Shown one piece after another: positions 2,251 to 25,719 of a DNA stretch of 64,000 nucleotides. The stretch covers positions 2,149-66,148 of the forward strand of contig DATKGU010000010.1 in NCBI GenBank assembly GCA_035510635.1. Direction: 5' to 3'. How positions within the stretch are numbered: position 1 is the first letter of the stretch; every line of letters begins with the position of its first letter. The notes under the pieces were generated by a model. That model was not told the DNA's origin. It saw nothing but the letters and a program-made list of their open reading frames with translations, and did not search any database. Source of the DNA: Minisyncoccota bacterium. Its GTDB lineage: Bacteria > Patescibacteriota > Minisyncoccia > Phycocordibacterales > SBAW01. Made by a program: the position numbers and the translations under genes.

Positions 2251-4404
2251 CTACTTCCTCGCAGCAACGATGGTGGCGGCGACGTTGGGCGGCACTATCT
2301 CGTAGTGGTCAAACTCCATGGTAAAACTTGCGCGGCCTTCGGTCATCGAGCGGAGCGCCGTGGTGTAGCCAAACATTTCCGAGAGCGGCACCTTGGCCTT
2401 GATGGCACGTGCGAGGCCACGCTCTTCCATACCCTCTATCTGTCCGCGTTTGCCGGAGAGGCTGCCCGTGATTTCACCCATGAACTGCTCGGGCACTACC
2501 ACCTCGACGCGCATGATCGGCTCGAGGAGCACGGGGCGTGCTGCTTTTGCCGCATCCTGGAAGCCCATCGACGCGGCGATTTTAAAGGCAATTTCGGAAG
2601 AGTCGACATCGTGGTACGAACCGTCGTACAGCTCGCAGGAGATGTCGACCATTTTAAAGCCGGCGACAATGCCGCGCTCCATGGCCTCGCGCACGCCCTT
2701 CTCCACTGGGCCGATAAACTCTTGCGGAACAACGCCGCCTTTGATGTTGTTGATAAACTCAAAGTGGTCTTCGCGTGTAGTGTTTTTAGAAATCTTCTTG
2801 TCGGGGTTGACCGGCTCGAGCGGTTTGAGGCGCAACTTAACATGGCCGTACTGGCCCTTGCCGCCGGTTTGCTTGATGTATTTACCCTCGGCCTCGGCTT
2901 CTTGCGTGATGGTCTCGCGGTAAGCCACTTGCGGTTTGCCTACATTTGCCTCGACGCCAAACTCGCGCTTCATGCGGTCAACTAAAATTTCGAGGTGGAG
3001 CTCGCCCATGCCTGAGATAAGGGTCTCCAATGTTTCGGCATCGGTCGAGACCTTAAAGGTTGGGTCCTCGTCGGCGAGTTTTTTCATCGCCATGCCCATC
3101 TTCTCTTGGTCGGCTTTTGTCTTGGGCTCGATGCGCAACTGGATAACCGGCTCGGGGAACTTGATTTGCTCAAGTTGTATCGGGTTGGCCTCATCGCACA
3201 GCGTGTGCGAGGTGCGCGTGTCTTTAAGGCCTACGGCTGCGGCAATTTCGCCGGCAAAAACTTTTTTAACTTCTTCGCGCTCATTGGCTTGGAGCCGGAC
3301 GATGCGGCCGAGGCGCTCTTTGGAGCCAGTGGTTGAGTTGTAAAGGTAAGAACCTGCTTCAATAGTGCCCGAGTAGACACGGAAGAAGGTAAGCTGGCCC
3401 ACAAACGGGTCGGCTTGGAGTTTAAACGCGAGCGCGCAAAACGGCTCTTCGTCGCTTGCGTGGCGTACAACCTCCTCGCCTGTTTTAGGATTGATGCCTT
3501 TAACCGGCGGCATGTCGAGCGGGCTTGGCAGATACTCGACAACGGCGTCGAGCACCAGCTGTACGCCCTTATTTTTGAGCGCAGAACCGCAATACACGGG
3601 GAAGATTTTGTTGTCGATAACCGCACGGCGGAGCGTGGCCTGCAAATTTTCCAAGCTCGGCTCTTTGCCGTCGAGATACTCGGTCATGAGCGTCTCATCG
3701 TGCTCGACAATTTTTTCGACAAGCTCGGCGCGATATTTTTTGGCCTCCTCAAGCAGATTAGCCGGGACTTCGTACTCAACCACGTGGTCGCCCATGTTGC
3801 CTTCAAATTTGTACGCCTTGAGCGTAAGCAAATCGACAACACCCTCAAACTTATCCTCGGCGCCAATCGGTATCTGCATGCGCACGGCATATTTGGTGAG
3901 ACGGTCTAAAATCGATTGATACGATTTTTCAAAGTTGGCACCGGTGCGGTCGAGCTTGTTGATAAAACATACGCGCGGCACGTTGGCCTCGTCGGCATAG
4001 CGCCAGTTGGTCTCGGATTGCGGCTCAACGCCGGCGACACCATCAAACACCACCACCGCACCGTCGAGCACACGCATCGAGCGCTTAACCTCTACGGTAA
4101 AGTCGATGTGCCCCGGCGTGTCGATGATATTGAAACGATATTTTTTAGACGGATCTTTTTTATCGAGCTCGGCTGTCTTGCTCCAAAAGCAGGTGATAGC
4201 CGCCGCGGTAATCGTGATGCCACGCTCGCGCTCTTGCTCCATCCAGTCGGTGGTTGTCTCGCCCTCGTGCACCTCGCCGATTTTGTGCTGCGAGCCGGTG
4301 TAATACAGTACGCGCTCGCTGGTGGTGGTTTTGCCCGCGTCGATGTGCGCGATGATACCGAAGTTGCGAACCTTCTCCAATGGATAGTCTCGTTTTATTG
4401 GCAT
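2251..4404 (-). CDS. fusA: translation elongation factor G
   Basis: ORF runs to 4467, but an EF-G-like N-terminus [28 protein letters not shown] begins at the internal ATG at 4404; all five EF-G domains present. Confidence 0.95.
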
Positions 4405-4462
4405 AGATAAATTAAAAAGCCCCTCGGGCGTTAGTGGCCAGCATACCCCAAATTGCAAAAAA

Positions 4463-4501
4463 TGCAAAAAAGAAAAATCCCCGCCAAAGTTGTTGGCAGG
4501 G
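4463..4501 (-). terminator. rho-independent terminator, minus strand; hairpin CCCTGCCAA-N5-TTGGCGGGG then AUUUUUCUUUUUU
   Basis: GC stem at 4479-4501 plus an A-run on the plus strand at 4465-4477; sits between the small ORF at 4513-4725 and the fusA start. Confidence 0.6.
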
Positions 4502-4512
4502 TTGATGCTACG

Positions 4513-4725
4513 CTAGACGCTTTTATATTGAGGTCGACGAGGTTCGAGCGACTTCCCAAAATCAACAAAGCTCGCATGAGCTGTAGCTGATTTTCTCCAA
4601 GCCTCCTCAATACGCAAGAGTTCATCCTCCGAAACGCGACTCCCATCTGGTTCAAAGTAGCGATGTTTAAAGTTGTCCGGCGTCTCTTCATACGAAGGAG
4701 GCCAAACATGGGGTATGTCCAACAT
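4513..4725 (-). CDS. hypothetical 70-aa protein
   Basis: ATG preceded by GGGAGG with a 5-nt spacer; followed by its own terminator; no recognisable motif. Confidence 0.45.
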   Translation of the reverse strand: MLDIPHVWPPSYEETPDNFKHRYFEPDGSRVSEDELLRIEEAWRKSATAHASFVDFGKSLEPRRPQYKSV

Positions 4726-4782
4726 GCGGCCCTCCCAAGAACTTTGCCGCTATATATAACACTCTTCAAACAAAAATAGTAG

Positions 4783-4815
4783 CCAATAAAAAACGCGGCC
4801 CCTGAGGGTCGCGTT
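4783..4815 (-). terminator. rho-independent terminator, minus strand
   Basis: AACGCGGCCC-CTGA-GGGTCGCGTT stem followed on the minus strand by UUUUUUAUU, just downstream of the stop of the 4835-5527 gene. Confidence 0.65.
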
Positions 4816-4834
4816 GGCATCTTGCACTGGCGCG

Positions 4835-5527
4835 TTACAGGCCGAGATATTGCGGCTTGATAACCGCCTCGATATCAACGACTTTTATTCGTAGTTGGGC
4901 TTCCTTTACATACGCGGCGAAATACGCCTCTTTATCGTTGTCGTGCCTGGCTTGGTTGAGTTGGGCGCTCACAACAAGCATGTCGCGTATGGCGTCCGCA
5001 TATCCATCCCAATCTTTTTGACAGGCGGTATATGCGTCCCCCACCAAAGTACTGCAGAAGTTGTTGCGGACAGCAAGCGCCTGCGTCTGCTCTCTAAGAT
5101 AACCCTCTGCAAAACTTGAAGCGGTTCCATTGCGCACCGAGGACCATTCGGTCGAGAAATAATTTTTATTCCACGTTTCATTGGACAGCTCGCGATATTT
5201 GACTACCAGCTGCACATACTGGCGCTTCAACTCCCACCCCTTGGGTTTGTCGCCTGCGATATAGGCTTCCTGCCATTTGTCGAGTACCGTGGCGGTTTCC
5301 ATCGAGATATCGGTTAGATCCTGATATAGCGCCCGACACCCCAAAATTTGAGGCGCCGATACGCGGTCACATGCCGCGCGGGTAAACGCCTCTGATGCGG
5401 CAATCTTGCGAAACGCTGCCGCCTCCTTTTGCATAAAGGTATCTTCCGCCCGCGCTGCTGACAGCGGCATAAGGGCCAACATGGCTCCGATGACTGCGAG
5501 GCCGATAACGTGCTTGGCATTAAACAT
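4835..5527 (-). CDS. secreted hypothetical protein, 230 aa, with signal peptide; possibly a Cys-containing DUF1311/LprI-like fold (weak call)
   Basis: N-terminal MFNAKHVIGLAVIGAMLALMPLSAARA; conserved Cys spacing and a QEAYIAGD segment are loosely reminiscent of LprI-type proteins. Confidence 0.55.
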   Translation of the reverse strand: MFNAKHVIGLAVIGAMLALMPLSAARAEDTFMQKEAAAFRKIAASEAFTRAACDRVSAPQILGCRALYQDLTDISMETATVLDKWQEAYIAGDKPKGWELKRQYVQLVVKYRELSNETWNKNYFSTEWSSVRNGTASSFAEGYLREQTQALAVRNNFCSTLVGDAYTACQKDWDGYADAIRDMLVVSAQLNQARHDNDKEAYFAAYVKEAQLRIKVVDIEAVIKPQYLGL

Positions 5528-5656
5528 GGCAGGCTCCCTCGGTTTTTGCGCGAATTGCGCTTTACATCCGCAACAGATATATCACACAAAATTAGGAGAT
5601 GCAATAAAAAAGCCGGCCGCTTATGGCGACCGGTACATATTGCCGACGTTGTTGCC

Positions 5657-6043
5657 CTATTCGGAATCCACACAAGGACCATCGTAGAGGAAACCCCCGT
5701 CGGGACCGAAACAAGCGAGCTCGGAACCGTCGCAAGGACCATAGTGGAGCAAGGCGCCGGTGTGAGAGCTCGTACAAGTCATCACTGGCGGTTGGATAAT
5801 GACTCCGCCGCCGTAGAAGCCGCCACCACCATAGCGCGGGCCGCCGCCGAAGAAGCGCGGGCCGGGATGGAACTGCGGCGCAAAGCCGGGATGGAACTGC
5901 ATCGGCGGGCGGATAAATCCGCCACGTTGCCACGCCGAGGCCGGCGAGGCGAGCGTCATCGCAGCCGCCATAGCGGCGATGCCAAACCAAAGAACTTTCT
6001 TCATTGAGCCCTCCTCGGCCCTATGCGTGGGGAATCCACGCAA
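5657..6043 (-). CDS. small secreted Gly/Pro-rich protein with a Cys-containing C-terminal repeat
   Basis: Signal peptide MKKVLWFGIAAMAAAMTLASPASA; repeats PQFHPG and GGGFYGGG; C-terminal YGPCDGSE / YDGPCVDSE repeat. Confidence 0.55.
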   Translation of the reverse strand: MRGFPTHRAEEGSMKKVLWFGIAAMAAAMTLASPASAWQRGGFIRPPMQFHPGFAPQFHPGPRFFGGGPRYGGGGFYGGGVIIQPPVMTCTSSHTGALLHYGPCDGSELACFGPDGGFLYDGPCVDSE

Positions 6044-6177
6044 TCATGTCCGACTATAGAACACTTTTATAAAAATGAAAAGAGGAGATGTAAACCTGTT
6101 TACCAACCATTGCACGGCCCTCCCCCATCTTGTAGAGTGTGGGCGGATGAAAATTGAACAAACCTCGGAGAAAAGCC

Positions 6178-9965: not shown

Positions 9966-11436
9966 CAGACTTAAGGGCAGCAATAGCAAGTGCCGTTAGC
10001 GGCACGTACATCAGCAACGCGAGCCAAAGCGGGAACGCGGCAAATGTGGCAAACCCAAACGGCAGCGCTTGCACCGTGTGCGCCACGAGTGTTACCCATT
10101 GCAAAAGCAGTGTTACCAAAAGCGCAGGCACAAACGCGAGCGCCGTGTTGATAAAACTCAAAACGCCGGTTAATAATCCGGCAATCATTACCAGCGGCAA
10201 AAGCGGCAACACCAATAAGTTGGCCGGTACGGAGAGAAGCGAGAGGTTGCCGGTAAAGTACAAAAGCGCGGGCAGTGCAAAAATTTGCACGGCAATGGTC
10301 GAGGTGATAATTGCGCGCATTTCAAAACGCTCCGGTATCCATCGCAACATTTTTTCGATGCTCGGCGCAAACACAATGAGCCCAAAGGTTGCGAGCACAC
10401 TCGTAAAAAATGATGCGTCACCTAAAATGAGCGGCGGGTTCCACAACACCATTGCTCCCGCCACAGCCGCTAAGCTCCGGAGTGCAAGTGCGGTGCGATG
10501 CATGTAGCGCGCCGTGAGCGCCACGAGCGCCATCATGCACGCGCGCACGGTGGTGGGAGCAGCTCCGGTCATCAGCACAAACAGCATCATGCAAAGCGCG
10601 GCACATACCATTTGGGAGCGGCGCGGCAAAAATTTGAGCGAGCGCAAGATCCCTTCCGACACTACCGACATGCTGTAGCCGGAGAGTATCACAATGTGTA
10701 TGAGCCCCGCCGCAACAAACGCGTCGGTCAAATCTTGCGGCAATCCGCGGCGCTCGCCAAGCATAATGCCTCCGAGAAGCAGCGCGTTTGGCGCGTTCAG
10801 TGTCCGTGCAACCGACGCATTAAACGCATGTTTAATTGAAAACAACACGCTGTAGAGCGAGAGTTTTGCAGGTGCAACTTGCTCAAGCTCGGCATCGCTG
10901 AGCAACATCGAGACGCCTTGCACCCGCAAATAATTTGGATAATCAAACGTGCTGCCGTTGTCGCCGACAAAACTTGCAGGAGCCGCAAGCGTACCACCAA
11001 GCGTTACCTCTTGCCCGTAAGCCGCACTTACATACGGAGGCAAAAATGCGAGCAGTGTGCCGCGCGCAGGGGCACCGTTGACCGACAACACGACCACATC
11101 AGCCTGCACATGCGCACCGCTTTGCACCGGGTCGTTTGCAATTGTTCCAACGACGGTTGCCTTACCTACAAATGTAGAGACAGTTTCTTGCGACTCTTTA
11201 TATAAAAACAAATCGCCGCGCACGGCACCGAGCACGAGGGCAATAAGCGCAATAGCAAAAAGTAAAAGCACGCGTTTGCGCATACAAGCTCCTGCAACAA
11301 TAAGAGCAAGCGCGGCAGCTATGCACATCAAAAGTGCGAGTGTGGGTATAGCAAAAACAAGCGCACAGCCAACGCCGCCCACCAAGCCGGCGGCCAACAC
11401 GTACAAAAAAGCGGCACTTGAATGTTCATCTTCCAC
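9955..11436 (-). CDS. comEC: ComEC/Rec2-family DNA internalisation channel protein (competence domain only)
   Basis: 493 aa polytopic membrane protein; FVAAGLIHIVILSGYSMSVV matches the ComEC competence-domain motif. Confidence 0.75.
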   Translation of the reverse strand: MEDEHSSAAFLYVLAAGLVGGVGCALVFAIPTLALLMCIAAALALIVAGACMRKRVLLLFAIALIALVLGAVRGDLFLYKESQETVSTFVGKATVVGTIANDPVQSGAHVQADVVVLSVNGAPARGTLLAFLPPYVSAAYGQEVTLGGTLAAPASFVGDNGSTFDYPNYLRVQGVSMLLSDAELEQVAPAKLSLYSVLFSIKHAFNASVARTLNAPNALLLGGIMLGERRGLPQDLTDAFVAAGLIHIVILSGYSMSVVSEGILRSLKFLPRRSQMVCAALCMMLFVLMTGAAPTTVRACMMALVALTARYMHRTALALRSLAAVAGAMVLWNPPLILGDASFFTSVLATFGLIVFAPSIEKMLRWIPERFEMRAIITSTIAVQIFALPALLYFTGNLSLLSVPANLLVLPLLPLVMIAGLLTGVLSFINTALAFVPALLVTLLLQWVTLVAHTVQALPFGFATFAAFPLWLALLMYVPLTALAIAALKSATK

Positions 11437-11467: not shown

Positions 11468-12193
11468 CTATTGATGCGCAGAAAACTCTTTGATGATGCC
11501 CGCTTCATCCTCCGGCGAGAGGGCTTTTTTGTAGCGGGCCGTTTTGCCTTTGACGCGTGCCTCGCACTCAGCCCATGTTTTATGTACTGCAATTTTTCCA
11601 TCCACTTTGCTTACGTAAGAATAGGCTTTTGCTTTTGAGCGCGCCTTTGACACAGATTTTTCTTTATGCAAACTCTCATCGCGCCCGAGGTTTGTTATGT
11701 CGATTTTGTATGCGCTGCGCGGGCCATTATATAACTCAACTTTTTTATGTTCTGCAAAGTCGGATGCAACAGTGTCGACGCGCTCGTTGCCCGCGACACC
11801 CACATGTCCGCCCACATAGCGCCACGTTATAGTGCCCACAATGTTTTGCACTGCGGCATCAAGCTGCATCCACAACTCTTTGTTTAATACTTGTTTTCTA
11901 TCTTTTGTTTTCCATCCGTTTTTTTTCCATCCCCCGACCCACTTGGTGATGCCGTTGACGACATAGGACGAGTCGGTGTGCACCGCCACGCGTGTGCCGG
12001 AGAGTTTGCTTGCATGTGCAACAGCCTCGGCCGCCGCGGTGAGCTCCATCTTGTTGTTGGTGGTGTGCGCCGAGTGGCCGCCAAGCTCAACCACAAGCGA
12101 GTGCGTTGCCACCAAAGCCCCCCACCCGCCCGGCCCCGGATTGCCCTTGGAAGCTCCATCGCAAAAAATAGTTATCTCGTGGTCTTCAGCCAT
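11468..12193 (-). CDS. rnhA: ribonuclease HI with a C-terminal hybrid-binding (HBD/Cauli_VI-like) domain
   Basis: N-terminal CDGASKGNPGPGGWGALV, ...MELTAA..., ...HVGVAGNERVD (RNase H DEDD); C-terminal AYSYVSKVDGKIAVHKTWAECEARVKGKTARYKKALSPEDEAGIIKEF resembles the RNase H1 HBD. Confidence 0.85.
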   Translation of the reverse strand: MAEDHEITIFCDGASKGNPGPGGWGALVATHSLVVELGGHSAHTTNNKMELTAAAEAVAHASKLSGTRVAVHTDSSYVVNGITKWVGGWKKNGWKTKDRKQVLNKELWMQLDAAVQNIVGTITWRYVGGHVGVAGNERVDTVASDFAEHKKVELYNGPRSAYKIDITNLGRDESLHKEKSVSKARSKAKAYSYVSKVDGKIAVHKTWAECEARVKGKTARYKKALSPEDEAGIIKEFSAHQ

Positions 12194-19983: not shown

Positions 19984-21050
19984 TGACAAAAACAGAAATC
20001 AACTGGTCTGACATAAGCAAAAAATTTTCAAAAAAAGAACTCCCCGACTCGGAGGTTGAGTTTGAGGGTGAGGTTCCTGCCGATGTGGTGGCACTCTACA
20101 AAGACGAAGCGCTCGCGCACATCGCGAGCGAGCTTGAGTTGCCGGGCTTTCGCAAAGGCCACGTGCCAACCGACATTGCACTCAAAAAAGTGGGCGACAT
20201 TGCCTTGCTCGAGGAGTCGGTCGAGGTGCTCATACGCGAGCTCTACCCCGCACTTGTTGCCGAGCACGCTGCAGACGCTGTGGGCCGCCCCGATATCCGC
20301 ATCACCAAACTCGCACCGAGCGAGCCCGTAGGCCTTACCGTGCGCACGGCTGTGTACCCTGTTGTAACAATCCCCAAAGATTGGAAGGATATTGCAGGCA
20401 AAACTCCACTTGAGGCTGCAGCGCTCGCGACCGACGAGGAGGTAGAAAAAACTATCGAGGACTTGCGCAAAAGCAGAAGGGCACCTTCTGCACCCGATGC
20501 AGAAGGTGCCCTTCAGGAAGCTCCCCTGCCCGAATTGAATGATGAGTTTGCACAATCGCTCGGCGCGTTTAAAACACTCGAGGAGCTACGCACACAAATC
20601 AAAAAAGGCATCGGAGAGGAAAAGGAGCGCACTGCCAAAGATGCACGCCGCGGCAAAATAATCGACAAACTGCTCGACAAAACACAAGTGGCAGTGCCAA
20701 AGATTTTTGTCGAGAGTGAGCTTGATAAAATTATGGGCCAAATGCAAGAGGATGTCGCGCGCTTTGGCATGAGCTACGAGGATTACCTCAAACGTGTTAA
20801 TAAAACCGAGGAGGCCGTGCGCCAAGACTTTTATGAGCAAGGCGCGAAGCGCGCAAAACTCCAGCTCGTGTTAAACAAACTTGCCGCTGACGAAAAAATC
20901 GATGCCGAAAAAGAAGCGGTTGATGCGGAGATGAAGCATGCGGTAGAGCACTTCCCCGAAGCAAACCTCGAGCTCCTAAAAATCCATATAGAAACAGTCT
21001 TGCGTAACGAGCGTGTCCTAAAAATCCTCGAAGGTGAAGCAAAAGAGTAG
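19983..21050 (+). CDS. tig: trigger factor (short form)
   Basis: 355 aa; N-terminal ribosome-binding motif ...LPGFRKGHVP...; start overlaps the ppa stop (TAATG). Confidence 0.75.
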   Translation: MTKTEINWSDISKKFSKKELPDSEVEFEGEVPADVVALYKDEALAHIASELELPGFRKGHVPTDIALKKVGDIALLEESVEVLIRELYPALVAEHAADAVGRPDIRITKLAPSEPVGLTVRTAVYPVVTIPKDWKDIAGKTPLEAAALATDEEVEKTIEDLRKSRRAPSAPDAEGALQEAPLPELNDEFAQSLGAFKTLEELRTQIKKGIGEEKERTAKDARRGKIIDKLLDKTQVAVPKIFVESELDKIMGQMQEDVARFGMSYEDYLKRVNKTEEAVRQDFYEQGAKRAKLQLVLNKLAADEKIDAEKEAVDAEMKHAVEHFPEANLELLKIHIETVLRNERVLKILEGEAKE

Positions 21051-21100
21051 CGCCTGCGTGAAGCCCACAAAAAGTTCCACGGCCAACGCAGGAAATAAAA

Positions 21101-21140
21101 AAGCCCCGGCGATTATGTCGCCGAGGTCTTTGTTTTGTGA
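21101..21140. terminator. bidirectional rho-independent terminator between tig (+) and island gene A (-)
   Basis: CGGCGA-TTATG-TCGCCG hairpin at 21106-21122 flanked by AAAAAAG upstream and TTTGTTTTGTG downstream. Confidence 0.65.
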
Positions 21141-21142
21141 GC

Positions 21143-21616
21143 CTATCTCGGAGGACGTGGTCGACATGAGCTAAAATACAGCGTTGCTGCAATTAACCCG
21201 TCGACCCAATATCCTGATAGGTCTAATTCAGATGTGAATATAAATTGTACAATCTTAACAGGCAACAATAGAACCGGAATTACTATGGAGCCGATTCTAC
21301 CTATCACCCATAAGGTGTTGTGGACAGGCCGCCTATTATAGAGGCGGCTCACATACACCTCGGCTCTTAAAAAACGTATGTAGTAATACAATCCGCATCC
21401 GATCAGTGCAACAGCGAGTACGACTCCCAAAGGAGTAGTCTCAATCTGGTGCTCTAGATCGAAAGTAATGCCGAGTAGTAATAACGCTGCAAGCAGACAC
21501 GCAAGTGCTTCTGCCTGCCAGAACGTGTCCTTGCCGGTGTGTTTATACACATACCAGCTAACAGATTCGCAAAGAACGATAACTCGAGCGTCGAAGTTTC
21601 GGATCCATCGAATCAT
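21143..21616 (-). CDS. island gene A: hypothetical polytopic membrane protein, 157 aa
   Basis: ATG preceded by AGGAGG; 3-4 predicted TM helices; preceded by junction repeat copy 1. Confidence 0.5.
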   Translation of the reverse strand: MIRWIRNFDARVIVLCESVSWYVYKHTGKDTFWQAEALACLLAALLLLGITFDLEHQIETTPLGVVLAVALIGCGLYYYIRFLRAEVYVSRLYNRRPVHNTLWVIGRIGSIVIPVLLLPVKIVQFIFTSELDLSGYWVDGLIAATLYFSSCRPRPPR

Positions 21617-21631
21617 GGAACCCTCCTAAAT

Positions 21632-21703
21632 CTCAATCAACCAACGATGATTCGCGAGTTGAATAAAGTGGATGATTTTTTACAGAAATCATCCAAAAAA
21701 CTG
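21632..21703 (-). repeat. island junction repeat copy 1: ~40-bp imperfect palindrome element plus a hairpin GGATGATTT..AAATCATCC; 74/75-nt duplicate of copy 2
   Basis: ctcaatcaaccaacgatgattcgcgagttgaataaagtggatgattttttacagaaatcatccaaaaaactg; lies between the stop of gene B and the RBS of gene A. Confidence 0.8.
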
Positions 21704-21706
21704 GGA

Positions 21707-22198
21707 TTAGCGCGCCGGTTCTTCAACCGGCAATGAAGCGAGGAGCAACCGGATGTCGTCCTTCTCCTTCTCGTTCATGAAAAGACGGGTCGCCGCCTCC
21801 TCATTTTTCGGGTCGGCCGTCGAGCTGGCCTGACCCTCGACGAAGTTCACGCCATGAGAAGAAGGTACCATTCCTTCTTCTCGTTTGGAATATTCGTAGT
21901 AGCCGCCTTCGCGCTTACGCGCGAAAGAAAAACCAAGGATAGTCTGCCCGACTTCCTTCGGCCCCAACCTGAACTCTTTGGCATTGACCACGGGGCCCTT
22001 TCGGGACTCGGAGTCGACAGCTACGAGAGCGATCATTCGCCCCCGCTTCTTTTCCTCCGCTCTCGCGAGCAAAAGGAGTTCAGAAAAGTTCCTGCGGGTT
22101 TCTTCGCGCAGATCAAGAACGGGCAACGCCCATTCCCGGCCCAGTTTTTCGAGGGATGCGCCAAAATCGAGCGTACCCAGTGAAATTTTCCGAAACAT
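21707..22198 (-). CDS. island gene B: hypothetical protein, about 163 aa
   Basis: ATG at 22198 with GGAGG 8 nt upstream (the ORF-track start at 22204 is a TTG); no recognisable domain. Confidence 0.5.
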   Translation of the reverse strand: MFRKISLGTLDFGASLEKLGREWALPVLDLREETRRNFSELLLLARAEEKKRGRMIALVAVDSESRKGPVVNAKEFRLGPKEVGQTILGFSFARKREGGYYEYSKREEGMVPSSHGVNFVEGQASSTADPKNEEAATRLFMNEKEKDDIRLLLASLPVEEPAR

Positions 22199-22218
22199 TT
22201 TCAAACCTCCGCTAAAAT

Positions 22219-22292
22219 CTCAATCAACTCACGATTGTTCGCAAGCTGAAAAAAGTGGACGATTTTTTGCAGAAAAATCATCCAAAAAACTG
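22219..22292 (-). repeat. island junction repeat copy 2 (near-duplicate of copy 1, with a compensatory G·U change in the hairpin)
   Basis: ctcaatcaactcacgattgttcgcaagctgaaaaaagtggacgattttttgcagaaaaatcatccaaaaaactg. Confidence 0.8.
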
Positions 22293-22298
22293 TGGGGG

Positions 22299-22511
22299 TC
22301 AGCTATTCTCGCGATCCCGAACGAGCTCCGCCAAGATGCGGCGGAAATCCGCGGCGGCGGCGTTGTCGCCGCGCGCCTCGGCTTCCTGGAGGAAGCCGCG
22401 GACGGTGGCCTCGCGCTCCAGCTGATTCTGCATCAGCCGGGCGCGGGCGCGGACGATGGCGCTTTCCGCGCCGCCGCCGACCGTGGTCTTCCTGTCGAAG
22501 ACGTTGGGCAT
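22299..22511 (-). CDS. island gene C: hypothetical 70-aa protein, paralogous at its C-terminus to gene F
   Basis: ATG with AAGGAG 8 nt upstream; C-terminus ...FRRILAELVRDRENS resembles gene F ...DEVLEKFLQDHRFLN. Confidence 0.5.
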   Translation of the reverse strand: MPNVFDRKTTVGGGAESAIVRARARLMQNQLEREATVRGFLQEAEARGDNAAAADFRRILAELVRDRENS

Positions 22512-22526
22512 ATAGAGTCTCCTTGA

Positions 22527-22570
22527 CTCAATTAGCTCACGACAATTCGCGAGCTAAACAGAGTCCTCGA
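22527..22570 (-). repeat. island junction repeat copy 3 (palindrome AGCTCACGA-CAAT-TCGCGAGCT; contains the stop codon of gene D)
   Basis: ctcaattagctcacgacaattcgcgagctaaacagagtcctcgaa; duplicated at copy 4. Confidence 0.75.
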
Positions 22571-22706
22571 ATTTTCGCATCGAGGAAGTGCGTCCCTTGC
22601 GGGAATATTTCTTTTTATCCGTCACAACTTGGTGACGGAACTGCTTTTGCGCAAGCGCACGCGCTGCAGCATTGCGCGGCTTGGGAACTTGTATCACCAA
22701 TCTCAT
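22554..22706 (-). CDS. island gene D: unannotated 50-aa basic ORF with a possible ArfA-like (alternative ribosome-rescue factor A) motif
   Basis: Absent from the ORF track (<60 aa); ATG at 22706 preceded by AGAGGAGG; MRLVIQVPKPRNAAARALAQKQFRHQVVTDKKKYSRKGRTSSMRKFEDSV; its TAG stop lies inside the junction hairpin. Confidence 0.4.
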   Translation of the reverse strand: MRLVIQVPKPRNAAARALAQKQFRHQVVTDKKKYSRKGRTSSMRKFEDSV

Positions 22707-22816
22707 GGTGACCTCCTCTAAAGAACATCTCATTTTCTTGCAGTAGCCAGGCAGAGACTTCTCCTGACAGCGATTGAGTTACAGAGCTCGCCACACTCCG
22801 GTGCCGATGGTTGCGG

Positions 22817-23071
22817 TCAGTGCCACTCCGTGCGGAGTTGCGCCTTCCAGTTGTTATCGGGGCGACCGCCGGAGCGGTGCTTACCGACAACCTGGATGCG
22901 CAGACCGCCGTTGCACTTCGCCACATAGTCGGCGAAGCCAGCAGCCTTGACCTTGTACTTTTTTCCATACTCGGCTTCGGTAAAGATGCCAAGCACGGGG
23001 CCGCCAGTCGTGCGGCCGTACAAGATCGCAACCTCGGCAAAGGCACTGAAATGTTCGATTTCAACGAACAT
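22817..23071 (-). CDS. island gene E: hypothetical 85-aa protein
   Basis: ATG (MFVEIEHF...) with GAGGGAG 6 nt upstream; the ORF-track start at 23086 is a GTG. Confidence 0.45.
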   Translation of the reverse strand: MFVEIEHFSAFAEVAILYGRTTGGPVLGIFTEAEYGKKYKVKAAGFADYVAKCNGGLRIQVVGKHRSGGRPDNNWKAQLRTEWH

Positions 23072-23170
23072 TTTCATCTCCCTCACCTACAGAGCACCAC
23101 CATTGATGCCCTGGAGAAAGGGGGCGAGCTTTGGTTTCCCATTGCTCACCTCGAAAATAATAGAATTGGA

Positions 23171-23216
23171 CTCAATCAGCCAACGATTCATTCGCGAGCT
23201 AAACAGAGTCCTCGAA
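23171..23216 (-). repeat. island junction repeat copy 4; includes a non-coding relic of the gene D 3' end (...FEDSV*)
   Basis: ctcaatcagccaacgattcattcgcgagctaaacagagtcctcgaag; there is no start codon in frame upstream of the duplicated stop. Confidence 0.75.
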
Positions 23217-23365
23217 GCAAGCTTCGAGGAACTCGCGGTTGTAAAGCGCGAGAGTTTTTGTGCGTAAGTTGGACTATGTAGGGTGTGGTCCAACCGCAGC
23301 TTCTGGTGCCAAGACAGGTTGCTTTCCTGCCTCCGTTGGTTCAAACGACGGACCCTCCGTCTCCC

Positions 23366-23395
23366 AACAATTCGCGCTAGTTCAAAAAGCGGTGG
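23366..23395 (-). repeat. island junction repeat copy 5 (partial core, overlapping the stop of gene F)
   Basis: caacaattcgcgctagttcaaaaagcggtgg shares the TTCGCG palindrome core plus AAAAAGYGGTGG with copies 1 and 2. Confidence 0.55.
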
Positions 23396-23589
23396 TCCTG
23401 GAGGAACTTCTCCAGGACCTCATCGGCCTCCTCGCGGCGGCCGCGCTTCTCGAACCACGAGGCGACGGCGAGCACGTGGCGCTCGTCCATCACCTTGCGC
23501 GGGCACTGGAGGGGCTTGAACCCCTCGGTCCAGCTTTGGACCCCGAGGACGTGCCCGTCCTCGGTGACGACCAGGGTCGTCTGGCACAT
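23377..23589 (-). CDS. island gene F: hypothetical 70-aa protein, paralog of gene C
   Basis: Internal ATG at 23589 with GGGAGGAAA 5 nt upstream (the ORF track extends to 23823 without an RBS); C-terminal similarity to gene C. Confidence 0.45.
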   Translation of the reverse strand: MCQTTLVVTEDGHVLGVQSWTEGFKPLQCPRKVMDERHVLAVASWFEKRGRREEADEVLEKFLQDHRFLN

Positions 23590-23892
23590 GGGGTTTCCTC
23601 CCGTGGCCCGCCAACTTGCGTTGACTTCCTTGCTCAAAGCCGCAAGGCATAGCTTTTTTGCCGCAATAGCGGCGAAAGTACTGAGCTGTCTTTTGCTGTT
23701 GGGAATGAGACCCGACACAACAAAAGACTTTAGGGCGTACATACCCAACGGAAGCTCAATTCCGTACCTCATCTGCCCCACCATCGTGGGGTGCTGCGGA
23801 TGAGGATTACATGCCGGAAACATCGCTCGGCTTTAGAGACTCGGGCAACCATTCGCACCCTATCCCTCGGCCATGTTATGGCCTACTTTTAC

Positions 23893-23932
23893 CTCGATCA
23901 GCTCGCGATTGCTCGTAAGCTGAATAGAGAGG
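23893..23932 (-). repeat. island junction repeat copy 6 (divergent core copy)
   Basis: ctcgatcagctcgcgattgctcgtaagctgaatagagagg. Confidence 0.5.
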
Positions 23933-24007
23933 AGAAGCGCGTGCACTTCTCCTGGGAACAATTTTGTTTCTGTTGCCAAGCGGTATTGTCAAACCGCTCC
24001 GATTGGC

Positions 24008-24331
24008 CTAGGCGACTTCGATCAGATACCAGACGATGCTGGCACCTTCCGGAAGAGTGCTTGCCCCTTCCGGGAGCCGCGGGCCCTTGTACTGGCCCAC
24101 GATTGCGCTGTCGCCCTTTTTGAGAGCGATGGTTGCGCGAATCGCGGGCACAGTCACGCCGAGTTGGCTGGCCATGACGGCCGCCGTGTCGGAATGCCCG
24201 ACGGCGGATTCGAACCCGCCATCGAGAAGGCCTCGCGCCTCGTCGAGCGAGATTTCCCTGAACAGGAGCGAACCTTTCGACTCGCTGACCATATTCAAGG
24301 AAAAAGCGTTCAACAACTTCAATTCGTTCAT
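24008..24331 (-). CDS. island gene G: hypothetical 107-aa protein, tentatively DUF1874-like (STIV B116-like family, recalled from memory)
   Basis: ATG (MNELKLLNAFSLNM...) with GGAGG 5 nt upstream; ...SAVGHSDTAAVMASQLG...IALKKGDSAIVGQYKGPRLPEGA... pattern. Confidence 0.5.
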   Translation of the reverse strand: MNELKLLNAFSLNMVSESKGSLLFREISLDEARGLLDGGFESAVGHSDTAAVMASQLGVTVPAIRATIALKKGDSAIVGQYKGPRLPEGASTLPEGASIVWYLIEVA

Positions 24332-24469
24332 GAGAACCTCCAAAACAATCGGAATCGCGGAATGCGACCCCTACTACCCCACCAACAAACTTGCGCGGGC
24401 ACCCCATTTATATTGAAGGGTGGGCTCAAAGGCCTGTTGCGCTGGTTATTAGTAGGGCAAAGGAATCAC

Positions 24470-24730
24470 ATATTCTTTGCATTTTTAACGTATTAAACTG
24501 TCAAAGTCCGGCTCCTTTCTAGATGTCAAACTTGATTGACAGAGGTATTATAGTCGATTCCCATTTTTTGTCAAGCATTGTTGGCACATTGTATATAAAT
24601 ATGTCAAATATAGCCTTATGTATAGCCATATTTACAGATATATAAAATCAGTAATTTATGACAAATAAAATTATTTACAAACTTACTACTTGACTTTTAT
24701 TTTTGACAATGCTAAGCTATTACTGTTGGT
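24470..24730. promoter_or_regulatory. AT-rich (~25-30% GC) intergenic segment with about eight TGTCAA/TTGACA hexamers, including the palindrome TGTCAAAC-TTGA-TTGACA at 24525-24541
   Basis: Sharp compositional drop relative to the ~57% GC flanks; lies upstream of island gene G and downstream of the TrmB-like gene. Confidence 0.5.
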
Positions 24731-24904
24731 GGTTGGGATAACTTGAAAGCCGACTGCTAACCCGGGTATGCACCCGGCCCGCTTATCGGGTGCTCTTTAG
24801 GAGAGGGTTCATGCGTAGATCCCCCGGAGATGGCGGCGGCTGGTAAATTGACCGGCTTACGTCAAAAAATTGGCTAAAATCAGGACGATTTAAGCCAGAA
24901 TCCA

Positions 24905-24954
24905 AAAAACATGTGTGCTACCGGGGCGGCTCTTGCGTAAAGCAAGGCCGCCCC
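24905..24954 (-). terminator. putative terminator of the TrmB-like gene (GGGGCGGC-N15-GCCGCCCC hairpin; U-tract 13 nt downstream on the minus strand)
   Basis: Very stable GC hairpin at 24924-24954; AAAAAA on the plus strand at 24905-24910. Confidence 0.45.
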
Positions 24955-24963
24955 AAACTATTT

Positions 24964-25719
24964 CTAATGATCCTCTACTCCTATACTCCACATCAACGAA
25001 AAGAAAACTCTAAAACTTTCTGCAATTTCTTTGCTTTCAATTATTATTCCAAATATAGGACTATTAAGAGACATAACGGCAACATTATTTTTATATACAA
25101 AAAAATCAGAACCTATGGGCATTTTGTCATAGGGTATAAACCGTCTTGCGGCATTCGGGGTTATATCATCTCTTGCTAAAGAGACTCCCTTTTTTGTGTA
25201 TACCGAACGTACTTTTATTCCTCTCTCAATGCGCCGGTTAGTATAACTAAACAATTCCTTTTCTGTATATATATTTTTAAGAGCATCGTAGCAGTAGATT
25301 ATGAGTATTTCATCGTCTTTTTTAAGCTTCAAAGTTTCTTCACGCATAGCGGTAATACCCTCCTTGCCGCTAAAAAAGCGCACCATTGGCCGCTCGCCGG
25401 CTCCTTCAAATTTGTTCAGGAGTTCGGGGAGAAAGTTTGCCAGCTCATGTTCTTTAACTTCAAACTCTTGTTTTTTCAATTCAAAAATGCGTTTTAAATA
25501 TTCGGGCGACTCTGGGGCAAAATAAGTTTTCTTGCCCTCCTGGTAAGTACTCATAAGTCCTTTTTTCATCAAAGATTCTATTTGTACATAAGTGGTCGAG
25601 CGCACAATCTTTGATTGCTTGGCTAATTGATCGGCCGTAGCACGGCCAATGTCGAGCGAAGCAAGATATACCTTTGCCTCCTTTTCCGAGAGCCCAATAT
25701 CTTGGAGTTCTTTAAGCAT
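24964..25719 (-). CDS. TrmB-family transcriptional regulator
   Basis: 251 aa; N-terminal wHTH LGLSEKEAKVYLASLDIGRATADQLAKQSKIVRSTTYVQIESLMKKGLM typical of TrmB; C-terminal effector-like domain. Confidence 0.75.
   Translation of the reverse strand: MLKELQDIGLSEKEAKVYLASLDIGRATADQLAKQSKIVRSTTYVQIESLMKKGLMSTYQEGKKTYFAPESPEYLKRIFELKKQEFEVKEHELANFLPELLNKFEGAGERPMVRFFSGKEGITAMREETLKLKKDDEILIIYCYDALKNIYTEKELFSYTNRRIERGIKVRSVYTKKGVSLARDDITPNAARRFIPYDKMPIGSDFFVYKNNVAVMSLNSPIFGIIIESKEIAESFRVFFSLMWSIGVEDH

Follow-up and report, generated by a model that had tools for sequence, protein, structure and literature searches.

The stretch examined here, 64,000 nt of a Minisyncoccota genome (contig DATKGU010000010.1, positions 2,149 to 66,148), carries seven co-oriented minus-strand genes, G1 to G7 in the order in which they are read (24331 to 21143), downstream of one conserved sigma-70 promoter. 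Copies of a small structured element lie at the boundaries between these genes. We propose that it is a modular intercistronic RNA element which also serves as a substrate for homologous recombination within a single-promoter operon, a reading to which we assign a probability of about 0.5. In the following, the window is the whole 64-kb stretch, W1 to W5 are the copies of the element in it, and L-numbers (for example L003 or L039) denote related loci from genome and metagenome collections with which the window was compared. The first-pass annotation had placed the seven genes between the terminator of tig and an AT-rich segment, and this layout holds. In the direction of transcription the features are:

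24964–25719, minus strand: gene of a TrmB-like winged-helix regulator (Pfam TrmB, E = 2e-13), upstream of the array and co-oriented with it
24400–24740, unstranded: AT-rich control region with a promoter, an inverted repeat and a divergent promoter
24008–24331, minus strand: G1, 107 aa, DUF1874/STIV B116-like (AcrIII-1/Csx16 ring-nuclease family) by library matches
23930–23953, minus strand: hairpin 1 of the junction from G1 to the non-coding segment and G2, terminator-like (whole-junction fold z = -4.2)
23891–23933, minus strand: W5, made up of linker, hairpin 2 and GAUCGAG (52 bits, E = 1e-11)
23593–23890, minus strand: non-coding segment of ~300 nt, reaching from W5 to G2, homologous to L003 1001–1189
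23377–23592, minus strand: G2, 71 aa, of a family found in 8 arrays
23355–23419, minus strand: terminator-like hairpin (23394–23419, inside the end of G2; terminator scan), then what is at best a truncated remnant of the element (4 bits)
23169–23230, minus strand: W4 with hairpin 1, by alignment a chimera with a non-coding relic of the G4 tail (element 23169–23212, 52 bits)
22817–23077, minus strand: G3, ~85 aa; the L003 homologue has 159 aa (tblastn, 76% identity)
22554–22706, minus strand: G4, 50 aa, basic, DUF7230 (putatively ArfA-like; Pfam E = 4e-7)
22525–22586, minus strand: W3 with hairpin 1 (22564–22586, inside the end of the G4 reading frame; element 22525–22567, 55.8 bits; fold z = -3.3)
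22299–22511, minus strand: G5, 70 aa, without a family; orthologue only in L003/L036
22217–22284, minus strand: W2 with hairpin 1 (22256–22284; element 22217–22259, 60.8 bits; terminator scan and RNA fold)
21707–22198, minus strand: G6, 163 aa, without a family; L003 orthologue with 67% identity
21630–21695, minus strand: W1 with hairpin 1 (21669–21695; element 21630–21672, 61.1 bits)
21143–21616, minus strand: G7, a 157-aa membrane protein; cassette missing from L003
21104–21126, unstranded: ordinary bidirectional intrinsic terminator, the common end of the array and of the convergent tig

A recurring element with an imperfect palindromic centre had been described from the letters, and both a pattern scan and a covariance model recover it. 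The degenerate pattern, allowing up to three mismatches, has 3 matches in 64 kb, all within the array, and 0 in 100 shuffles, while a repeat finder clusters four to five copies. The covariance model, built from 28 copies, detects five copies in the window, all on the minus strand (52–61 bits, E = 7e-14 to 1e-11), and nothing else comparable in the 64 kb; the copies are confined to 2.3 kb. Six copies, one at every junction, had been counted originally. Five are full; the sixth, at 23355–23393 (4 bits, E = 6), looks as if it had lost its 3' arm and kept the terminator-like hairpin intact. The G3–G4 junction (22707–22816) has no copy, and G3 and G4 are regarded as a two-gene unit without an element between them because both genes overlap in L039 and L040. 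After G7, the last gene, there is an ordinary terminator and no copy of the element; the same is true of the last gene in L033 and L039, and the terminal copy of L003 has a decayed 3' half. The junctions G6–G7 and G5–G6 had been singled out as near-identical and as sharing a second hairpin, which they are and do: they have 87% identity over ~90 nt and the hairpin GGATGATTT in common. The change in this hairpin that had been read as compensatory is a single A-to-G substitution yielding a G.U pair, not a double change.

The repeated unit is longer than the ~40 bp first ascribed to it and spans 70–90 nt. In mRNA sense it comprises hairpin 1, a linker C-U-Y-U-A-U-U, hairpin 2 and a 3' flank U-Y-G-A-G (AUYGAG), after which the ribosome-binding site follows. 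The statistics given here and in the next paragraph refer to 50 copies from 13 sources (alignment A5). Hairpin 1 is GC-rich, varies in sequence and has a mean free energy of -13 kcal/mol and frequently a UUCG or GNRA loop; it lies ahead of every copy and ends 4–6 nt short of the AUU of the linker. In W3 the stop codon of G4 falls within this U-rich linker. Hairpin 2 has an 11-bp stem and a loop mostly of 4–5 nt. From CUC to GAG the element measures 39–57 nt, and a Shine-Dalgarno sequence and start codon lie 7–30 nt downstream of it in about 35 of the 50 copies. Minimum-free-energy folds of the window junctions (z-scores -2.6 to -4.2) contain the two hairpins plus a 3-bp CUC/GAG helix that closes a UAU/UY internal loop, and folds of the antisense strand break hairpin 2 into fragments. 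A sigma-70 scan detected no promoter-like site at the junctions; the single perfect promoter precedes the array.

All 50 copies lie on the sense strand of their arrays, including those in loci that were fetched only via the TrmB protein. Standard pairs make up 95.5% of the cells in the alignment, and 9 of the 14 pairs have changed on both sides, in 59 cells. None of 500 shuffled alignments reaches any of five pairing measures, and when the partner is slid by 1–3 columns pairing falls to 29–41%; the 28-copy set gives the same picture. Pair 12–65, for instance, is seen as C-G, G-C, U-A, A-U and U-G, and some copies combine a wholly different stem sequence with the same flanks. The positions of the internal loop and the flanks are 94–100% conserved, and one G.U pair is retained in 36 copies. 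G.U/U.G cells number 101 as against 9 A.C/C.A cells (p = 8e-21), because of which we conclude that only the sense strand folds: the coding strand is the one strand under selection to pair. The type of 3' arm tracks the downstream gene, the copies upstream of G3 having UCGYUGGYU in common. An extension of the stem through A9–U40 was considered and rejected, because the U/C change at position 40 has no covarying partner change (alignment A2).

The element is not peculiar to the window. A scan of the genome collection yielded a genuine element in a Kaiserbacteria metagenome-assembled genome (MAG), L003, and in a Peribacteria MAG, L020; 20 of the 23 matches were chance singletons, mostly in GC-rich genomes. 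The match in L001 (Saccharibacteria), one of three inspected in the Candidate Phyla Radiation (CPR), was rejected since it lies in a coding region. The metagenome scan contributed 14 further loci. Three others, L038 to L040, were fetched solely through homologues of the TrmB-like protein, with the element not consulted, and they show the same layout: a TrmB-like gene, 0.7–1.6 kb of non-coding DNA and five to seven small same-strand genes, with three to five sense-strand copies of the element in each locus. Homologous arrays lie downstream of the TrmB-like gene in Kaiserbacteria, Adlerbacteria and Peribacteria, and the unit sits between clpP and tig in the window, L033, L039, L040 and L035/L003. 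Arrays with more than one copy hold 3–13 copies, the maximum being that of L024. Absence from relatives, a fixed gene order or mere chance similarity would have spoken against the element; instead, each of the homologous loci that were examined has it. A separate metagenome contig, L030, matches G4–G7 with 100% identity, so that the locus cannot be an artefact of assembly. Three pattern scans of viral contigs found no genuine copy (two were empty and the third gave 11 single chance matches without a hairpin), and the pattern scans of genomes and metagenomes returned no tandem array of the element.

The closest relative by flanking genes, L028 (NusA 86% and ClpP 88% identity), has, where TrmB and the array would lie between tig and clpP (3560–6130), an AbrB-type antitoxin, a Doc/Fic toxin and further genes, and its copy of the element is located outside this interval. 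Because L028 has a different island there, the tig–clpP interval appears to be a hot spot for variable content. At 2530–4120 of L039 a second TrmB-like paralogue is divergent from two small genes, which are followed by a weaker copy (4073–4117, 33 bits). It would seem that a single genome can carry two mini-arrays, each with a regulator of its own.

Transcription of the array appears to be governed from a single region. Orthologues of the TrmB-like regulator (50–75% identity) precede the arrays in L024, L033, L035, L029, L038, L039 and L040. Downstream of its gene in the window come ~200 nt closing in a bidirectional terminator, then the control region; a consensus RNA structure was looked for in the stretch between the AT-rich segment and the TrmB gene, and none was found. 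The minus-strand promoter (24574–24547) is a perfect TTGACA-N16-TATAAT, scoring 12/12 in the promoter scan, and just past its -10 box, at the transcription start, lies an inverted repeat TGTCAA-N6-TTGACA (24524–24541). Blocks of this region are kept in 6 loci of three candidate phyla, with 72–74% nucleotide identity in blastn across the loci of Kaiserbacteria, Adlerbacteria and Peribacteria. The inverted repeat is a natural candidate for an operator of the TrmB-like protein, which probably controls the promoter. The region additionally has several GTCAA/TTGAC boxes and an AAATATGGCT box. On the divergent transcript there is a micro-ORF (open reading frame) encoding MRRSPGDGGGW (24811–24846, plus strand), with conserved Shine-Dalgarno sequence and ATG; L039 and L033 have glycine-rich counterparts of 8–12 aa, and L038 retains the Shine-Dalgarno sequence and ATG.

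The arrays behave as collections of cassettes, as had been supposed: gene content and order vary between genomes, and blocks of homology stop inside the element. Gene families were counted over 14 array regions, of which L035 overlaps L003. A DUF1874 gene is present in 8 of them (7 distinct arrays), as are the G2 family and DUF7230 (8 each), the G3 family (4) and a CxxC protein of ~95 aa (5). A protein resembling the C-terminal domain of the RNA polymerase alpha subunit, assigned by eye from its helix-hairpin-helix-like sequence with no family-library run, occurs in 2; around these families there are ~100 singleton genes. The order G1–non-coding segment–G2 in the window stands against G2–non-coding segment–G1' in L003. 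G7 is found in the window only of these two loci, and blastn homology to L003 stops at 21637, inside W1.

Two copies look composite. The copies at 22527 and 23171 had been noted to carry the last codons and stop of the 50-aa ORF, as a non-coding relic in the second, and the conclusion that a junction was duplicated together with a gene tail is borne out. In a four-way alignment the 5' half of W4, including the last codons and stop of G4, is of the G4–G5 junction type, and its 3' half is of the type found upstream of G3 in L003; W4 is, on this alignment, a chimera with the crossover inside the element. W5 looks chimeric as well: by sequence inspection it has a 5' half of the L003_1783 type and a 3' half and flank like those of the L003_963 copy, and its blastn homology to the junction downstream of G1' in L003 stops inside the element, at 23918. 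The chimeric copies and the ends of homology blocks within the element attest to recombination there.

The first-pass annotation had found no assignable function for any of the seven genes, which two of them contradict. G1 belongs to STIV_B116/DUF1874, with matches in Pfam (E = 1e-13), PADLOC (Csx16, E = 1e-13) and the PDB (2j6b, E = 5e-8; 6scf, E = 5e-3), and G4 to DUF7230. G1 retains the GH..TA motif of the AFV3-109/STIV B116/AcrIII-1 (6scf) ring-nuclease family. Across all seven proteins, PADLOC, PHROGs and NCBIfam returned only Csx16/DUF1874 for G1 and two PHROGs of unknown function for G4; G2, G3, G5, G6 and G7 have zero matches in Pfam, PHROGs, NCBIfam and PADLOC. The two ~70-aa proteins, G2 and G5, had been taken for paralogues, and BLASTP gives no alignment between them even at E <= 100. 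The G2 family is the first gene past the promoter in the arrays inspected (L033, L039). A word-index search for G2 homologues gave nothing; an exhaustive HMMER search gave 37 representative homologues of 62–76 aa, nearly all small stand-alone proteins. Its AlphaFold2 model (mean predicted confidence, pLDDT, 85.7) has no fold match in the PDB, the best hit having E = 1.7. G3 is by comparison a truncated version of the 159-aa protein of L003 (1829–2305): the window has TAG where L003 has AAG, and the chimeric W4 junction replaces the N-terminal part. Because G3 is truncated and its upstream frame replaced in this way, the 85-aa ORF at 23344–23087 is probably not a gene. The ~300-nt non-coding segment has its homologue only in L003 (nhmmer E = 2e-11), where it sits between two copies of the element like a non-coding 'cassette'; the segment has no Rfam match and no convincing ORF.

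Is such an element without precedent? The first-pass annotation had suggested a new kind of cassette junction, which overstates the case. In the passages that describe it, Weinberg et al. (2017, NAR 45:10811; PMC5737381) present a DUF1874 motif that shares the hallmarks of the element: it is a multistem structure whose internal loop is highly conserved, lies in 5' untranslated regions (UTRs), recurs in one intergenic region after another with ORFs in between, and is linked to DUF1874 genes. According to the same passages, there is no integrase at the 5' end of a run, an unusual attC role was considered, and the function was unknown. Compared by description only, the window element fits on all the features stated there. 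The multistem and conserved loop correspond to hairpin 1 followed by P0, internal loop and P1, with loop positions 94–98% conserved; the element arrays show the 5'-UTR and consecutive intergenic positions; the link to DUF1874 genes is seen in 8 of 14 regions; and no integrase was found at the promoter end of the arrays. Relative to those passages, new here are the Paceibacteria and Peribacteria hosts, the TrmB-like gene with its conserved promoter and operator candidate, the clpP–tig location, the sense-strand G.U asymmetry, the lack of a copy past the last gene and the chimeric copies. Rfam holds no relevant family for the window at gathering thresholds, for 21000–25100 at E <= 5 or, in Rfam 15, for L003, L024, L039 and L040 at E <= 10, although it is uncertain whether Rfam includes the DUF1874 motif; a literature search found no later papers mentioning it.

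How might the element act? Most likely it works as a single-stranded nucleic acid of the sense strand, in the mRNA, and we favour an RNA processing or regulatory hairpin, the third of the alternatives originally offered. The whole array would be transcribed from the one conserved sigma-70 promoter, probably under control of the TrmB-like protein via TGTCAA-N6-TTGACA. At each boundary hairpin 1 and the U-rich stretch may act as a leaky terminator and protect the 3' end of the upstream cistron. The conserved structure that follows, with its 3-bp CUC/GAG helix, UAU/UY internal loop, 11-bp stem with conserved G.U and small loop, would be recognised, at its internal loop and stem, by an RNA-binding protein or an endoribonuclease of the host. 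Once bound, this factor would keep the cistrons separate or insulated and would determine the 5' end, the short leader and the translation of the next gene, so that any small gene that enters the array could be expressed. The ~40 nt, being the same at each boundary, could in addition serve as patches for homologous recombination by which gene units are shuffled, added and deleted. That the element serves the downstream gene is suggested because the last gene lacks a copy, the terminal copy of L003 has decayed and the type of 3' arm tracks the downstream gene.

A familiar parallel is found in the early genes of phage T7, whose RNase III processing signals leave a protective upstream hairpin and a short downstream leader. 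Like the element, they are irregular hairpins between cistrons in which an asymmetric internal loop is conserved. RNase III cuts within an irregular duplex of roughly two turns. The element differs from the T7 signals in having a lower helix of 3 bp and a duplex of ~14 bp, at the lower limit for RNase III, and in being preceded by a separate hairpin; cleavage at the element is putative. Start-associated sequences (SAS), and those with extended inverted repeats (ESAS), are described in Cluster K mycobacteriophages (PMC3203893). They are reportedly conserved motifs just before the start codons of a subset of genes, some with an imperfect inverted repeat; they are said to include the Shine-Dalgarno sequence itself and to concern expression, in phage genomes, and their sequence is unrelated to the element.

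Several points weigh against an RNA module. Processing and termination at the junctions are read from sequence and predicted folds. Searches have not produced the partner protein: no RNA-binding fold can be recognised in G2, which is the best conserved of the array genes, and the RNase III signature motif is absent from the six-frame translation of the window. The G.U/G.T asymmetry fixes the strand and does not tell RNA from single-stranded DNA. A row of six leaky terminators would attenuate the distal genes if nothing counteracted them, and in most copies the stem sequence is conserved beyond the need of a purely structural role.

It is conceivable, if rather unlikely, that the element is a recombination site in single-stranded DNA, either an orphan, integrase-less analogue of attC or a target of an HUH-type enzyme, the recombinase being encoded elsewhere. 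The alternation of ORFs and elements with variable gene content, the chimeric copies and a Xer-type tyrosine recombinase at the distal end of the L038 array would suit such a site, and the possibility was raised for the DUF1874 motif by Weinberg et al. (PMC5737381). The stem can also change its sequence fully while pairing, CUC...GAG flanks and mismatches are kept, which recalls an architecture of R and L boxes. Arrays of attC sites, including clusters lacking an integron integrase (CALIN), likewise consist of same-strand promoterless cassettes behind one promoter, with an imperfect hairpin and short conserved inverted flanks at every boundary, and the locus had been likened to them. The recombinogenic fold of attC is formed by the bottom strand, antisense to most cassette ORFs; the element, however, folds as the coding strand. 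Its flanks CUCUAUU/AUYGAG fit the attC cores R'' (RYYYAAC) and R' (GTTRRRY) on neither strand, and it measures 39–57 nt where attC has 57–141 nt. An attC site closes every cassette at its 3' end including the last, whereas here the last cassette has no copy and that at the end of L003 has decayed. Integrons have an integrase and attI at the promoter end; in all arrays here a TrmB-like gene lies upstream, and Pfam shows no integrase adjoining the promoter end of any of them. On cores, folding strand, last cassette and missing IntI, membership of attC/CALIN was rejected. Against a single-stranded recombination site also speak the crossovers of both chimeras, which fall within or near the stem-loop and not at a 3' core site, and the tight Shine-Dalgarno spacing and obligatory terminator-like hairpin, both features of expression signals. 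A bolder reading would join recombination to expression: a CPR-specific integrase-less cassette system in which a dedicated factor reads the conserved internal loop and stem of the element, as RNA or single-stranded DNA, punctuates expression and directs the capture and exchange of small genes. We regard this as doubtful. Such a system would be a functional analogue of the integron assembled from different parts, with the TrmB-like gene, promoter and array forming one regulated chromosomal slot.

Readings in which double-stranded DNA is recognised fare worse. A composite terminator–promoter cassette, served by an alternative sigma factor or dedicated polymerase and possibly containing an operator, would make each gene its own unit. 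It would explain why the terminator-like hairpin has a conserved block directly behind it and then the ribosome-binding site, and a 'restart' signal matches a last gene without an element and a first gene with a normal promoter. The promoter-early stem-loops (PeSLs) of T4-like phages, composite terminator/promoter motifs (PMC2839356, PMC4122927), provide a model: they too are short conserved composites that open with a terminator-type stem-loop, lie between small variable ORFs of unknown function and are places where homologous exchange shuffles gene modules (PMC4122927), as the block ends and chimeric copies indicate here. PeSLs, however, have a recognisable sigma-70 early promoter and belong to phage genomes, whereas no junction of the arrays has such a promoter and the element has a second, covarying sense-strand hairpin and sits in the chromosome of CPR bacteria, at a conserved locus. 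Hexamers like TTGACA/TATAAT at a workable spacing are lacking, yet the clade uses canonical promoters, and the compensatory changes and the 101:9 asymmetry for G.U denote selection for pairing on one strand, unlike a double-stranded promoter or operator. We consider this explanation improbable. An operator of the adjacent TrmB-like regulator repeated ahead of each gene, also entertained earlier, is scarcely credible, because strand-specific G.U pairing is not expected of an operator in double-stranded DNA. The TrmB-like gene does strictly co-occur with the element-bearing arrays and the core is palindromic, but the stems have compensatory changes, some are entirely different, and a separate conserved repeat, TGTCAA-N6-TTGACA, overlaps the point where transcription from the one strong promoter begins. 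Also very improbable is a selfish or neutral repeat, either a palindrome resembling repetitive extragenic palindromic (REP) sequences or miniature inverted-repeat transposable elements (MITEs), or a mimic or solitary unit (Racr) of a CRISPR repeat tied to the AcrIII-1-like gene. The palindromes are intergenic and a DUF1874/AcrIII-1-family gene lies within the array. The 3' flank AUUGAG may loosely resemble the AUUGAAAC handle of CRISPR repeats. The element is, on the other hand, confined to TrmB-linked arrays in one orientation and a fixed register to stop codon, hairpin 1 and ribosome-binding site, and it is kept across three candidate phyla. In a CRISPR array the repeats would alternate with spacers of 25–40 nt; a scan of the 64-kb window for tandem arrays found no CRISPR or CRISPR-like array, which together with the lack of tandem and viral copies argues against mimicry. 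A genome-wide palindrome of the REP type or of the bacterial interspersed mosaic element (BIME) type was rejected in view of the 2.3 kb to which the window copies are restricted.

What would an intercistronic RNA module mean? The CPR, or Patescibacteria, are uncultured organisms with small genomes and almost no experimentally characterised regulatory RNA. The locus is a concrete and widely conserved system in which one regulator, one strong promoter and an operator candidate precede exchangeable small genes, among them an AcrIII-1-family ring nuclease and a putatively ArfA-like peptide, with a well-supported structured element per boundary. If the element punctuates or insulates cistrons as RNA, it shows how arbitrary incoming genes stay expressible in one operon and would also give synthetic operons a compact, naturally occurring component. 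If, instead, it is a recombination site, the integron principle would have been invented independently a second time. In either case an orphan motif from a 2017 survey now has defined hosts, a genomic context and predictions by which it can be tested as a system.

Further observations concern individual array genes and their junctions. In the PDB, a profile of six DUF7230 proteins matched only chains of ArfA, the alternative ribosome-rescue factor A (six distinct sequences, E 0.04–0.07), over the region with the KGKGSY-RKGK motif (KK..Y.RKGR). The DUF7230 ORFs lie at 22554–22706 (minus strand) in the window and at L003 2487–2639, L025 5684–5833, L031 4407–4556 and L033 8803–8973. In the window and L003 the last part of this ORF contains hairpin 1, and its stop codon falls in the U-rich linker; in L025, L031 and L033 the ORF continues through hairpin 2. 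Termination or cleavage at the junction would therefore leave a non-stop mRNA, the stop codon lying in the U-tract that follows the terminator-like hairpin or beyond hairpin 2. Escherichia coli arfA is controlled via non-stop mRNA. An ArfA-like function of DUF7230 with control of the arfA type is a lead that this resemblance suggests.

In several junctions, above all those that follow DUF1874 genes, a CTTGGCAACAGAAAC box, often behind a small hairpin, precedes hairpin 1 by 40–60 nt (window ~23972–23986, minus strand; L003 ~1727–1741 and 880–895; L020 ~2190–2205; L040 ~11700–11715), and may be a further part of the multistem motif. In L040, 11637–11718 (plus strand) gives a sub-threshold match to alpha-tmRNA (29.6 bits, gathering score 50, E = 6e-5); it coincides with the 3' end of a DUF1874 gene just before a copy of the element, and ARAGORN reports no tRNA or tmRNA there. 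A rarer 5'-UTR motif, CCGCA-loop-UGCGG CCCGCACCUCGGGGUCAGGGGU followed by a Shine-Dalgarno sequence, is absent from the window and precedes some array genes, including a DUF1874 gene (L039 11790–11845 and 12395–12450; L024 4758–4771, minus strand). L039 also has a non-coding repeat of ~100 nt (…CCCCGTCTGACTAC…GGAAATATAAGACTGAATACCA…) at 10140–10240 and 10860–10950, each time shortly before a copy of the element.

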